Part shown: positions 117 through 23,226 of the stretch, piece after piece
Position numbering within the stretch: position 1 is the stretch's first letter
Layout of the letters: each line of letters starts with the position of its first letter
From: a virus
Taxonomy: Duplodnaviria > Caudoviricetes
Reading direction: 5' to 3' (one strand)
DNA length: 27,315 nucleotides
Virus record (IMG/VR): IMGVR_UViG_3300031519_000174
Location: 1-27,315 of that record
The notes under the pieces: generated by a model
The model's input: only the letters and a program-made list of their open reading frames with translations
Told to the model about the DNA's origin: nothing
Databases searched by the model: none
Translations under genes and position numbers: made by a program

Positions 117-953
117 TTATTTTTTATTATGTATTAAATCAAGGGCCAAATTATGTGAAAATCTACCGGCCTTGGGGCCACCATTTACCTTACCATCACT
201 TTCACCAGGTACCTTTATCCAAAGGTAAGCATCTACTATTTCATCACAAGTTTGAGTGGTTGGTGGTTCTCCTATTGAACGACCAAATGGATTAAAGTGT
301 TCTGAATTAGCACCATTACCATTTCTTGAGGTGTCTATTACGAAGTGTGTATTATTAAGTCGTTTTGAAATCTTTTTTCCATATTCATAACAAGTAGTGG
401 TTGCATAATAGTTACTCGTGTTGAGTGCAAAACCTTTTATTTTGTGAACATCACATAAATCTAAATAACTTACAGCCTTGTCGGTGGATAACCATTTTGG
501 ATTTCCTATATCTATGTAAACTGATGCACTTGTTCTACTCAATAATTCAATACTTGCCTTGATGAGTTTCATCCTATCTAATCCATCAACCACCCCCATT
601 TGTTCCATATGTGGAATACAATCAGGTTCGTATATTACAATTGGAGATTTATCACCGAGTGCATTACAAAATTCTTGAATGAATTCTAAATACTCATCAT
701 CAGAATCTGCACCACCTTTTGAATGGTGACCTAAGTCTCGTTGTGGAATTGAGTATATGACTAATGTGGGTAAATATGGATGTGCTCGTTTGAGTAATCG
801 TTGTATGGAATGTTTGGTCTTTCTAATGGTTCTTTTAGGCCCGACTCCATACCAAAAGGCTATCGGTTCTTTTGTAATCTCTTTTATTTGTGGATATTTA
901 AAACAAACATCTTCTCTACTATTCCAATCTGGATAATAAAACCTATAATTCAT
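117..953 (-). CDS. Glycoside hydrolase family 6 (cellulase-like) catalytic domain
   Basis: GH6 signatures in order: YSIPQRD...S.GGA, VIYEPD (catalytic acid Asp), YIDIGNPKW, GFALNTSNY, FVIDTSRNGNG, NP.GR.IG.PPT, DAYLWIKVPGESDG. No signal peptide or CBM. Overlaps the upstream ORF by 11 nt. Confidence 0.92.
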   Translation of the reverse strand: MNYRFYYPDWNSREDVCFKYPQIKEITKEPIAFWYGVGPKRTIRKTKHSIQRLLKRAHPYLPTLVIYSIPQRDLGHHSKGGADSDDEYLEFIQEFCNALGDKSPIVIYEPDCIPHMEQMGVVDGLDRMKLIKASIELLSRTSASVYIDIGNPKWLSTDKAVSYLDLCDVHKIKGFALNTSNYYATTTCYEYGKKISKRLNNTHFVIDTSRNGNGANSEHFNPFGRSIGEPPTTQTCDEIVDAYLWIKVPGESDGKVNGGPKAGRFSHNLALDLIHNKK

Positions 954-15148: not shown

Positions 15149-15192
15149 TTTGTGTTTCTCCGAGTGATTAAAACTGAATAATTCTTATCAGT

Positions 15193-15202
15193 TATAAATA
15201 TC
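15193..15202 (-). promoter_or_regulatory. GATATTTATA putative phage promoter
   Basis: Exact intergenic copy upstream of the 78-aa ORF and tape measure gene. Confidence 0.65.
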
Positions 15203-15216
15203 AAAATATCTGAAAA

Positions 15217-15438
15217 TTACTTTCTTCTTGGAGTGTTTGATTGAGATTTTTTAGATGCTTCATCGTAAGCCTTATTCTCATCATCGTACTGAGCCTGTAA
15301 ACGTTTTAAATAATAAGTTCTTAGATAAATGGGCATATTGTAAACCTCACTAAAGTGGAATCCACCTTTAGCGTGATATATTAAAAGAAATATTTGGTTG
15401 TGTATTTCTGGTTTATCAACCGGCAGAAGGCCAAAAAA
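15217..15438 (-). CDS. Unannotated gp51-like extension of the tail assembly chaperone (predicted frameshift product)
   Basis: Open frame FFGLLPVDKPEIHNQIFLLIYHAKGGFHFSEVYNMPIYLRTYYLKRLQAQYDDENKAYDEASKKSQSNTPRRK*. It is +1 relative to the upstream gene, begins at a U7 run and has no ATG before its mid-point. The F.E..NMP..R..Y...L pattern resembles T4-type gp51. Confidence 0.75.
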   Translation of the reverse strand, partial: FFGLLPVDKPEIHNQIFLLIYHAKGGFHFSEVYNMPIYLRTYYLKRLQAQYDDENKAYDEASKKSQSNTPRRK

Positions 15439-17006: not shown

Positions 17007-17036
17007 TGTTAATCTCCAATAAATTTTTTCTTCAAC

Positions 17037-17046
17037 TATAAATATC
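17037..17046 (-). promoter_or_regulatory. GATATTTATA putative phage promoter for the tail tube gene
   Basis: Exact copy 30 nt upstream of the tube ATG and downstream of the sheath terminator. A second variant copy lies at 17112-17121. Confidence 0.7.
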
Positions 17047-17125
17047 AGTTTTTATAAAAAACATCACATTCATTATTCATAGTTTTATAGAAGTTATATT
17101 TTAACCTCATATATAAATATACAAG

Positions 17126-17160
17126 GCAACAAAAAACCCCTCAAAAAGAGGGGCTTTTGT
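17126..17160 (-). terminator. Rho-independent terminator after the tail sheath gene
   Basis: Minus strand GCCCCTC-TTTTT-GAGGGGT followed by TTTTTGTTG, about 25 nt after the sheath stop codon. Confidence 0.85.
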
Positions 17161-17182
17161 TTTATTAATCTATCGATTAAAC

Positions 17183-19915: not shown

Positions 19916-19982
19916 TTTATTTCTCCTATTAATATTATGATTTAAATAACTTTATTAGCCCAAAAAGACTATGAATATTTTA

Positions 19983-19992
19983 TATAAATATC
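19983..19992 (-). promoter_or_regulatory. GATATTTATA putative phage promoter for the tail sheath gene
   Basis: Exact intergenic copy upstream of the sheath gene. Confidence 0.7.
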
Positions 19993-20030
19993 GTCTAAGT
20001 TTCTCAAACGATAGGTTTGATTGAGTTTAT

Positions 20031-20411: not shown

Positions 20412-21122
20412 CTAATTCACTTTTTTCTTGAGAATTTCTACCTCTTGTTTTAATTCTTTGATTGATTCTATTAATAACGGAACGATTCTCTTGTAATCTA
20501 CTCCTAAATAACCATTTTTTCTCTCTATTACGATTTCAGGAATAATTTTTTGAACTTCTTGTGCAATAACTCCAACATCGTGTCCTCTTTCTTGTGCCCA
20601 AGCGGGTGATTTGTCATTCCAATCGAATTCCACACCTCTAATCTCACCTATCTTATCCAATGAACCTTGTATAACTTCTATATTGTCTTTAAGTCTTTCA
20701 TCTGATGAATTATATGCCACTACATCACCATCTGCTACTATATCACCACTTGAGGATATTTGTGCCATAGTGAGATGTGAAGCTGATGAACCACTTACAT
20801 CACCGGTGAATAATGCCTTACCGGCCTCTGACATATCCAATGTTAACGCGGTGATTGTTGATCCACCATCTTGTCCTTTAAATACAATATCTTTATTATT
20901 AGTAGCAGATTTTATAATGAAATCAGAAGCGTCTCTTTTAAATCTACCGAATTCAGTTCCATCATCTTTTAATATAACATCAGCACCATTGGCATCAAGA
21001 GAGATATCACCTACTACATCAAGTGTAAAATCACCTGCAATATTTGCAATATCTCCACTTAGTGTTAAATTATTTAGTATGGCATCACTACCAGATACTA
21101 TTACTTTTTTCCAATTTGGCAT
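20412..21122 (-). CDS. Short tail-fibre-type protein with a C-terminal peptidase S74 intramolecular chaperone
   Basis: SSDERLKDNI (auto-cleavage site), GVIAQEV, VDY..IVPLLIESIKEL coiled coil. GGGAG RBS. Confidence 0.9.
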   Translation of the reverse strand: MPNWKKVIVSGSDAILNNLTLSGDIANIAGDFTLDVVGDISLDANGADVILKDDGTEFGRFKRDASDFIIKSATNNKDIVFKGQDGGSTITALTLDMSEAGKALFTGDVSGSSASHLTMAQISSSGDIVADGDVVAYNSSDERLKDNIEVIQGSLDKIGEIRGVEFDWNDKSPAWAQERGHDVGVIAQEVQKIIPEIVIERKNGYLGVDYKRIVPLLIESIKELKQEVEILKKKVN

Positions 21123-21141
21123 TTAATTTATCTCCCTACGG

Positions 21142-21191
21142 TTGGATACTCTTTCGAGCCCACTTCCCAATGTCGCCAAACATCAGGCCAA
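21142..21191 (-). ncRNA. Candidate structured cis-regulatory RNA (three-way junction)
   Basis: P1 UUGG/CCAA; P2 CCUGAUGU/ACAUUGGG; junction AAGUGG; P3 GCUC-GAAA-GAGU. A GC-rich island in AT-rich DNA, ending 5 nt before the RBS. Confidence 0.6.
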
Positions 21192-21196
21192 TAAAG

Positions 21197-21484
21197 TTAA
21201 TCTTTTATCCAAAGTTCTCCATCTTTCACTATATTATTTTTGGATACTTTGTTATCAGAATTTTGTTTGTATTTTTTTAGTGAATCCGTTACTTCAGTTT
21301 TACTTCTACTTAAAATTCCTAACTGATTTTGTAATTTTTGAACTACTCTATTACCTAAACTCAAGTATTTTCCAGGTACCATTGAATTTGTTATGATATT
21401 CAGTAAAAACTCAATATCTTCTTTACTTAACTGAGATACTTCATCTTCAATTATTCTTTTTTTTCCATTAGTTGTAATTCCCAC
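21197..21484 (-). CDS. Small hypothetical protein between the two fibre genes (possible fibre chaperone)
   Basis: 95 aa with a GTG start and GAGGT RBS. Function inferred from position only. Confidence 0.7.
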   Translation of the reverse strand: MGITTNGKKRIIEDEVSQLSKEDIEFLLNIITNSMVPGKYLSLGNRVVQKLQNQLGILSRSKTEVTDSLKKYKQNSDNKVSKNNIVKDGELWIKD

Positions 21485-21502: not shown

Positions 21503-23164
21503 TTATGAATAAATCCAAATAGTTCCATCGTTATTTATTGCTATTTCTCCTACTCCATACTCTTTGTCACCCTCTACAGGTGCACCATCATCACCAAGTG
21601 CCTTTGCAGTAACAACAAACTCTAATGGGGTAACTGCTGTTGCTGTATTCTTTACTTGTTTTGCTACAGACCATCTTTGTGAGTTAATGTCGTGATATAT
21701 TGCTGAACCACTATCTACAGCTGAACCACTTTGAACAATTAAACCGGCATCAACATTTGTTCCAGCTGAACCTGTTGCTGCAAATATAAATGCATCTCCA
21801 ACTGCAAGATTTGTTGTAGAGAGTGTTGTGGTATCACCATTAACTACCAAATCACCTTCGATAGTTGCGTTACCCGAAACATCAAGTGTTCCAGTTACAT
21901 GAACACCAGCTGTATCGGTATGTAATCTTACCGTATTTGCTGCTGATATTTTTACACTATCATCCGTTCCGAAATCTATAAATGTATCTGTTGCAGCTCT
22001 ACCAATTTTAAGTCCGGTATTGTAAATCGATGTAATAGTGGTTTGTGCTGCGTCTATATCGATTACCAACGTTCCATCACCTACTGTTGCTGTTAATCCA
22101 CCACCTGCTAAATCTGCTGGTGCTTCTACAGCAGGACCATTAGTTCCACCTACTAATATCACACCATTTGTAGACATTGCCAATGAACCGATGGCGTCTG
22201 TTCCACTATCTTGTGAAATCAATACTGCTTTATCAGTTAATGCACTGGCTCCTGTTCCACCTTCTGCCACTGCCAATACTGTATCTAATACTAGAGAATC
22301 AAAAGTTGCTGCTCCACTTGCACTTATCACAGAACCCGTTAGAGCTCCTACTGCTTCAAATTTTCCTCCGACATATCCATCGTTTGCTACATACAAGTCT
22401 CCACTTGCAGTAATATGTGTGGAAGCGTTAAACGAACTTGCTGAAACATGAAGTCCACCTACTATACCACCTTGTGCATTAAAATCAATATCATCTACAA
22501 ATAATTTTCTAAATGCTGTTCCACTTATACCCAAATCAATTGAACTATCGGCGTTTGGTTTTACATTTGCTCCACCTGCTGCCAATGTTATGTCTGCTGC
22601 TGCAGTTATTACCATATCCGTAGATACATCAATGGAGTCGTTAGCACCATCTATTTCTAACTTATCTACTCGTGTGCTTCCACCCCCTATTGTGAGTAAA
22701 TTTGCTGCATGAGTTAAGGTGATGTCACCTTCATTAAAATTAATAACTGCTCCAGTACCAAGAAATATATCACTAAATCCTGTTCCACTAACACCAAGTG
22801 CAATAGTATTATCAGCATTTGGTTTTACATTAGCTCCACCTGCTGCTAAAGTTATGTCTGCCGCTGCAGTTAAAACCATATCTGTGGATACATCAATGGA
22901 GTCATTTGCCCCATCTATTTCTAATTTATCTACCCTTACATTTCCACCTGCTATTGTGAGTAAATTTGCTGCGTGAGTTGCAGTTACATCACCACTATCA
23001 AAATTTATTACAGCACCACTATCTAAGAATAAGTCACTCCAATTTAAAGTTGTAGTTCCTAATGCCCCACCATCTGTTATTGTAGGTACTAAATTTCCAC
23101 TTGAACTTACGTGATTTAATTCGGCGGTGGATCCCGAAACTATCACTTTTCTCCATGTTGCCAT
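21503..23164 (-). CDS. Tail fibre / virion fibre protein with an internal duplication
   Basis: 553 aa, Gly/Ala/Thr-rich. Contains VAEGGTGA and L.V.GN..I.GDL.VNG.TTT fibre motifs. AGGAG RBS. Confidence 0.8.
   Translation of the reverse strand: MATWRKVIVSGSTAELNHVSSSGNLVPTITDGGALGTTTLNWSDLFLDSGAVINFDSGDVTATHAANLLTIAGGNVRVDKLEIDGANDSIDVSTDMVLTAAADITLAAGGANVKPNADNTIALGVSGTGFSDIFLGTGAVINFNEGDITLTHAANLLTIGGGSTRVDKLEIDGANDSIDVSTDMVITAAADITLAAGGANVKPNADSSIDLGISGTAFRKLFVDDIDFNAQGGIVGGLHVSASSFNASTHITASGDLYVANDGYVGGKFEAVGALTGSVISASGAATFDSLVLDTVLAVAEGGTGASALTDKAVLISQDSGTDAIGSLAMSTNGVILVGGTNGPAVEAPADLAGGGLTATVGDGTLVIDIDAAQTTITSIYNTGLKIGRAATDTFIDFGTDDSVKISAANTVRLHTDTAGVHVTGTLDVSGNATIEGDLVVNGDTTTLSTTNLAVGDAFIFAATGSAGTNVDAGLIVQSGSAVDSGSAIYHDINSQRWSVAKQVKNTATAVTPLEFVVTAKALGDDGAPVEGDKEYGVGEIAINNDGTIWIYS
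22490..23090 (-). repeat. 88-aa (264-nt) tandem duplication inside the fibre gene, about 2.3 units
   Basis: HAANLLTI.GG..RVDKLEIDGANDSIDVSTDMV.TAAADITLAAGGANVKPNAD occurs twice. The DNA word ATTGTGAGTAAATTTGCTGC starts at 22689 and 22953. Boundaries are approximate. Confidence 0.9.
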
Positions 23165-23193
23165 TATTACTCTCCTATATATAGAATGTTATT

Positions 23194-23203
23194 TATAAAT
23201 ATA
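23194..23203 (-). promoter_or_regulatory. TATATTTATA variant promoter for the 553-aa fibre gene
   Basis: Intergenic copy with one mismatch to the consensus. Confidence 0.55.
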
Positions 23204-23226
23204 AACATTCTAAATTTATGTTAATT

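Follow-up and report, generated by a model that had tools for sequence, protein, structure and literature searches.

Known examples of virion structural genes that are controlled at translation come from few model phages. In the account of T4 given in PMC3014915, the operators of gene 32 (a pseudoknot) and gene 43 (a hairpin) enter a translational off state that is stabilised by gp32 and gp43, respectively, and hairpins hide the start of the late genes e, soc, 49 and I-TevI. The GP20-a and GP20-b motifs (RF02991 and RF03003; PMC10690425) are candidate cis-regulatory RNAs before one phage gene family. The tables of the same study (Fremin, Bhatt and Kyrpides 2023, PMC10690425) also list DNAVirus_1847, an 85-nt candidate RNA of aquatic phages with 366 sequences, 333 of them marine, which lies within 25 nt of Peptidase_S74 (130) and adhesin-like-domain genes and has one covarying pair; DNAVirus_1845 is its opposite-strand companion. 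Our literature search returned no paper that describes such a motif upstream of tail-fibre genes, the PMC5737381 supplement and the PMC10690425 alignments lying outside that search.

The window, by which we mean the whole 27,315-nt stretch of DNA that was analysed, is a phage fragment of 27 kb whose minus strand encodes tail sheath, tail tube and baseplate proteins. A 74-nt gap (21123-21196, minus strand) separates a 95-aa ORF from a 236-aa Peptidase_S74 ORF and is GC-rich, as the initial annotation had noticed, with a GC content of 0.45 against 0.11-0.34 in the window's 11 other intergenic gaps of at least 15 nt. The same annotation had placed a compact RNA at 21191-21142 (minus strand), where the sequence is as it described, but this extent is too small: the outer stem of P1 reaches 21196 and 21134, and the element is a three-way-junction RNA on the minus strand from 21196 to 21134. 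The features of the locus, in the direction of transcription, are as follows.

21197-21484, minus strand: gene for a 95-aa helical protein; its stop codon ends 7 nt 5′ of the P1 GG
21188-21196, minus strand: 5′ strand of P1, with outer CUUUAU (21196-21191), a bulged base (21190) and inner GG (21189-21188)
21166-21187, minus strand: P2 hairpin, with two conserved junction pairs, variable above, and loop UUGGCG (21179-21174)
21174-21179, minus strand: loop L2, complementary to UGCCAA across the start codon; a predicted loop-start pseudoknot
21163-21165, minus strand: junction strand J2/3, AAG, nearly invariant, although rare variants exist
21143-21162, minus strand: P3, with UGG/CCA at the junction, a 2-nt bulge on the 3′ side (21147-21146), a GCUC/GAGU stem and a GAAA loop (21155-21152)
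21142, minus strand: J3/1, a single invariant A
21134-21141, minus strand: 3′ strand of P1, CC-GUAGGG, covering the first three bases of the Shine-Dalgarno (SD) sequence
21132-21136, minus strand: SD-like sequence GGGAG
21123-21125, minus strand: UAA abutting the fibre AUG; 74 of the 88 copies of the SD type have UAA or UAG here
20412-21122, minus strand: gene for a 236-aa tail-fibre-like protein with an MPNWKK start, a C-terminal Peptidase_S74 chaperone domain and tail-fibre PHROG matches

The fold was evaluated on an alignment of 100 of 150 distinct motif copies. Its order in the family is P1, P2 (with no J1/2), J2/3 AAG, P3 and J3/1 A, where P3 consists of UGG/CCA, a 2-nt 3′ bulge, G-U and C-G pairs and then a free arm. 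Under this revised fold 94.9% of cells are paired, compared with 27-50% in slid control alignments, and double-sided changes occur in 12 of 18 pairs; RNAalifold recovers the same fold unaided. The P2 hairpin, the GAAA-capped stem and the SD GGGAG (21136-21132) had been described correctly. The P1 proposed with them, UUGG/CCAA, was rejected by pair counts against the revised P1, as it shows a single double-sided change over four pairs in the 100 copies, with the U-A broken in 25, one G-C changing to G-U only (16) and the other G-C broken in 5. The covariation joins GG to the final CC of CCAACC, and the junction UGG to CCA. This UGG/CCA helix had been offered as an alternative pairing; it is real and conserved, but since covariation selects it, the two folds are not competing states. 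Its middle pair is G-C in 84 and A-U in 16 of the aligned copies, so that UGG/CCA and UAG/CUA replace each other with Watson-Crick pairing intact. The energy in the window is -17.4 kcal/mol for the revised fold compared to -12.5 for the earlier one.

Changes counted on a tree (5′/3′/joint) were 14/14/14 for a P3 pair, 34/33/36 for outer P1 and 2/2/2 for inner P1; these counts are rough because the coarse FastTree protein tree (270 rows) is short. The bulged base of P1 is fixed in position and free in identity (U in 208, A in 45, C in 17, never G), and one copy (L614) has a U-A pair inserted on both P1 sides. The core is nearly invariant and both arms vary freely, with only four unpaired bases conserved, and no covarying pseudoknot was found inside the core among the columns tested. 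One pair alternates between U-A and U-G (43 and 53 of 100), 89 of 100 copies retain a G-U pair, and GNRA tetraloops cap 99 L2 and 42 L3 arms in 286 copies. The U-A/U-G toggling and the GNRA loops place the RNA on the mRNA strand, as the opposite strand would have mismatches. The element is thus a conserved, covarying three-way-junction leader RNA, kept by compensating mutations. A single sequence would not have revealed this: the 50-nt piece alone has a z score of -1.70, with 10 of 200 shuffles folding equally well, which is within chance, while the evidence from the family is beyond it. The pair probability of inner P1 exceeds 0.5 in 51 of 280 copies, a marginal predicted stability that fits ligand dependence, but the energy model's treatment of multiloops alone could cause it.

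In loci fetched by the fibre protein, the three blocks recur ahead of genes that start MP(N/S/A)W(K/R)K, and the blocks UUGGCC and CCAACC, which had been predicted, are conserved between variable arms. A scan by start codon only, blind to the motif, gave 121 matches with 117 distinct upstream regions and 105 family starts. The motif is present in 159 of 167 distinct upstream regions from pooled loci that were in part motif-selected. Among the eight regions without it, three have the motif about 120 nt farther up, three have an intervening endonuclease-like ORF (with the motif upstream of the ORF in two), and two lack it, namely L225, which is itself the upstream paralog on its contig, and L283, which has similar upstream sequence. 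Scans anchored on the motif confirmed the tie to the fibre gene that had been suspected: an MP.W gene follows 107 of 112 distinct viral copies, the rest preceding two endonuclease-like ORFs or, in three cases, no callable ORF, and 111 of 118 metagenome copies, the rest being one HNH-like ORF, three contig ends and three GC-rich, likely chance matches. The fibre genes behind the motif range from 98 to more than 1650 aa, and of the complete ones 10 of 53 carry S74 and 5 carry collagen repeats; such variable length and domain content behind a fixed start indicates that the motif tracks the fibre N-terminus, not the S74 domain. Endonuclease ORFs of the HNH/NUMOD type lie directly behind the motif at L010:1443-1646, L138:1573-2175, L333:1550-1795 (minus), L388:4259-4984 (minus) and in L506; four of them keep an MP(N/D)Y start, and the fibre gene restarts downstream with codon 2 CCC or CCU.

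By our estimate, some 720 stretches of viral and 2,900 of metagenome DNA carry the motif, and in marine and freshwater phages alike this one small fold is kept almost without exception before a hypervariable fibre gene. Strong copies occur once per genome, and the window holds no further copy (next-best model score, 11.8 bits); a weak second model match was seen at G003:C1:79681-79722 (minus strand; 17.5 bits, E 0.012). Among cultured phages, Flavobacterium phage immuto 2-6A carries a single copy (59 bits), which precedes the tail-fibre-like gene immuto26A_219; this phage forms, with Flavobacterium sp. LMO8, a cultured pair for direct tests. A search for copies in Microcystis phage Mel-JY01, RM378 and LR756508 found none. 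Mel-JY01 is the closest cultured relative by tail tube (69%) and encodes ribosomal protein bS21 (L449:12184-12411). In the 185,579 bacterial genomes of GTDB there are seven pattern matches, of which three reach 58-65 bits and lie before the same phage gene, on what are probably phage contigs in the bins of metagenome-assembled genomes, three score 18-23 bits with broken stems, and one is without a model match. Contigs from RNA libraries span the element, one without differences, with strand and ends not readable from the contigs and a DNA origin possible.

Rfam 15 gave no match in the window at gathering score, and with E values up to 10 allowed, neither the surroundings of the element nor 20 diverse loci yielded a credible one, in line with the initial annotation; this leader RNA is real, strongly conserved and uncharacterised, and absent from Rfam. 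Glutamine riboswitches (glnA and Downstream-peptide) are small three-stem junctions with a purine-rich junction strand and an E-loop at the junction. The present element resembles them in its small three-stem junction with a purine-rich junction strand, but the matching stretch covaries as Watson-Crick pairs with no E-loop, and there is neither an Rfam match nor a context of nitrogen metabolism. Like GP20-a and GP20-b (PMC10690425), it is a candidate cis-regulatory RNA before one phage gene family, though a different one and without an Rfam match. DNAVirus_1847 may be the same RNA, a comparison made on its table description; it is unlike the present family in that the table lists only the one covarying pair and a marine origin for 333 of its 366 sequences (PMC10690425). 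An intrinsic terminator was rejected, as the sequence after P1 is purine-rich and, as already noted at the outset, has no U-tract.

The motif occupies a fixed place 12-33 nt 5′ of the fibre AUG, and its structure overlaps or abuts the initiation region as that of an operator would: of the 97 copies with an SD, 69 have it covered by P1, and the end of P1 lies a median of 11-12 nt before the AUG across all copies. Two types of leader are found, and the same RNA serves genes with and without SD sequences. In the window's type, the SD is present, there is no upstream TATTTAT box and P1 overlaps part of the SD; among promoter-less SD copies with a called upstream ORF, the upstream stop lies 4-12 nt before the P1 GG in 74 of 84. 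The other type has a TATTTAT box just upstream of the motif; such a box is present in 171 of 303 copies and ends a median of 6 nt short of the P1 5′ end. It is found in 98 of 398 upstream regions and in none of the matched in-gene stretches; judged by this placement, the box probably serves as a late promoter, and the motif would then stand at the transcript 5′ end in those loci. Promoter-like ATTTAT boxes also lie in the gaps 15149-15415, 17007-17182, 19916-20030 and 23165-23226 of the window, on the sense strand upstream of structural genes; the family consensus is ATATTTATA. Readthrough or frameshifting into the fibre gene and a conserved leader peptide were rejected because gap length modulo 3 is uniform (30/29/25).

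Besides P1, the loops may take part in hiding the start. Of 208 copies, 75 have a loop with complementarity to the start region, compared to a mean of 5.7 and a maximum of 13 for shuffled loops (200 shuffles) and 29 of 208 for an in-gene control region. Three unrelated loops match the start: L2 UGGCR with UGCCR (the window's case), L3 GGCAU with AUGCC, and L3 CUCACU with AGUGAG upstream of the AUG. All 72 L2-UGGCR copies have a purine opposite the loop U, while other groups tolerate pyrimidines (pooled scans with mixed selection). A strict rule of CCA or CCG at codon 2 was considered (250 of 266 beside the motif against 7 of 14 without) but is weakened by genes with CCU/CCC starts, as 51 of the 73 such loci scanned have the motif; only in the L2-UGGCR clade does it hold. 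In three long leaders of about 120 nt (L213, L293 and L299), which look like one lineage, a conserved downstream helix pairs with the P1 strands and excludes the junction, being 9-11 kcal/mol more stable. With the junction enforced, 7 start-region bases are paired versus 3 and 0 in two of these leaders, and 7 versus 7 in the third. This helix and the start-region hairpin are a candidate expression platform from the folding model. All of these read-outs would agree in that a folded junction hides the start, with the 133 of 208 copies that have no loop-start match relying on P1 alone.

We consider it somewhat better than an even chance that the element is a translational off-switch of one fibre gene, which would hide the start when a partner, probably a protein, binds the junction. 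We infer that the folded state is the off state, that a ligand stabilises it and that this ligand is a protein. A protein partner is favoured because only four unpaired bases are conserved, the gene is a virion gene and the T4 operators, as described in PMC3014915, provide a precedent. Thus, a partner, probably a phage protein, would bind and stabilise the junction, and the stabilised closing stem would keep the ribosome off the start site, with pairing between loop and start codon added in many copies. In the window's clade, a ribosome terminating upstream would open the unbound stem, given that the upstream stop is mostly 4-12 nt before inner P1, and so couple translation of both. The stem would be locked by an excess of unassembled fibre or by some other tail component, which would keep fibre synthesis in balance with tail assembly. 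The arrangement would resemble the T4 gene 32 and gene 43 operators, structured leaders at the initiation site of a phage gene, with a protein-stabilised off state proposed here by analogy; unlike them, it is a three-way junction and precedes a virion fibre gene, not one for a nucleic-acid-binding replication protein (PMC3014915). If the element is a ligand-gated switch, it shows fibre supply being kept in step despite a more than tenfold change in fibre length and content. Of the functions suggested in the initial annotation, a translational switch is therefore the one best supported; a processing or recombination signal is little supported, given the free G-U wobbles and the RNA-library contigs that span the element. 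A broader reading, less likely than not, is that of a phage-specific riboswitch-like sensor in which an invariant junction with at least four start-hiding modes would bind either tail-fibre protein not yet assembled or a small molecule of the host, and would set the dose of receptor-binding fibre on the virions of a broad group of aquatic myoviruses; if true, it would represent RNA-level feedback on virion assembly or host recognition.

The proximity of the upstream stop would also suit a device that needs no ligand, in which the fold lowers initiation or ties it to the upstream ribosome and the conserved bases serve tertiary packing, as the four conserved unpaired bases, which flank G-C pairs, could do. 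We regard this dampener as unlikely: any hairpin would suffice for it, yet the core is nearly invariant and the arms are free, the same core is found in promoter-proximal leaders without an adjacent stop codon, and a mutually exclusive helix is kept in the long leaders. A true riboswitch, with a metabolite or ion of the host as junction ligand and fibre synthesis shut off or lowered according to host state, is quite unlikely. An invariant core, variable arms and several start-hiding read-outs are the anatomy of a translational riboswitch, but very few conserved unpaired bases are available for a pocket, the element is tied to a structural gene and never to metabolic genes, the three strong matches among the seven in GTDB precede the same phage gene, and no Rfam riboswitch matched at E up to 10.

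The compact fold and the bulged P1 base, fixed in place and free in identity, could be read as a self-cleaving ribozyme or a signal for nuclease processing, with the fibre mRNA being matured at the bulge, for instance. We hold this to be very unlikely. No Rfam model of the known small self-cleaving ribozymes matched, the tested columns of the core gave no covarying pseudoknot, and the motif is probably already at the transcript 5′ end in many loci; the RNA-library contigs that span the element intact are weak evidence in the same direction, being strandless and possibly DNA-derived. Timing of the T4 gene e type, a mechanism known from T4 (PMC3014915), would have early long transcripts fold and stay silent and late ones start inside the 5′ strand and be translated. 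The present leaders do share with the e, soc, 49 and I-TevI hairpins an SD or AUG within a helix and a promoter-like box near many copies. However, the T4 late promoter lies inside the stem, whereas the box here ends before the 5′ strand of P1 by sequence and is absent from the window's gap and clade, and the mechanism described for T4 needs no invariant junction core such as is found here, which makes this timing highly improbable. Finally, a DNA-level recombination anchor for swapping fibre modules, or a mere homing-endonuclease target, is barely credible, for although hypervariable fibres follow a fixed start and HNH/NUMOD-type ORFs are inserted behind the motif in the five loci named above, the U-A/U-G alternation and the kept G-U pair would mismatch on the other strand, the arms carry GNRA loops, and there is one strong copy per genome.

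Returning to the proposed off-switch with a protein partner, its simplest form, autoregulation by the fibre itself, is complicated by a 553-aa paralog (21503-23164, minus strand; start MATWRKVIVSGS), whose N-terminus is near-identical to that of the fibre but which has no motif. Position 2 is Ala in 74 of 90 paralog starts and Pro in 305 of 305 motif-adjacent starts. The UAA or UAG abutting the fibre AUG in most SD-type copies occurs in 2 of 28 SD-bearing paralog starts; no frame is kept across the gap.

The small-protein family represented by the 95-aa ORF precedes the motif in 190 of 195 loci. It belongs to no Pfam or PHROG family, matching only unnamed Atlas clusters, and its structural model (pLDDT 68) has no PDB or viral structure match at E below 0.001. 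Members are present, too, where the motif is absent, namely in Mel-JY01 and in five loci where the family directly abuts an MPSWKK gene. As a candidate ligand the small protein therefore finds no support, having no family or fold match and occurring without the motif. In L579, L587, L593, L623 and L644, two tandem small-protein matches abut the MPSWKK gene, making these natural motif-less loci. Elsewhere in the window, a 278-aa ORF (117-953, minus strand) matches glycosyl hydrolase family 6 (E 2e-45), which is unusual for a phage.
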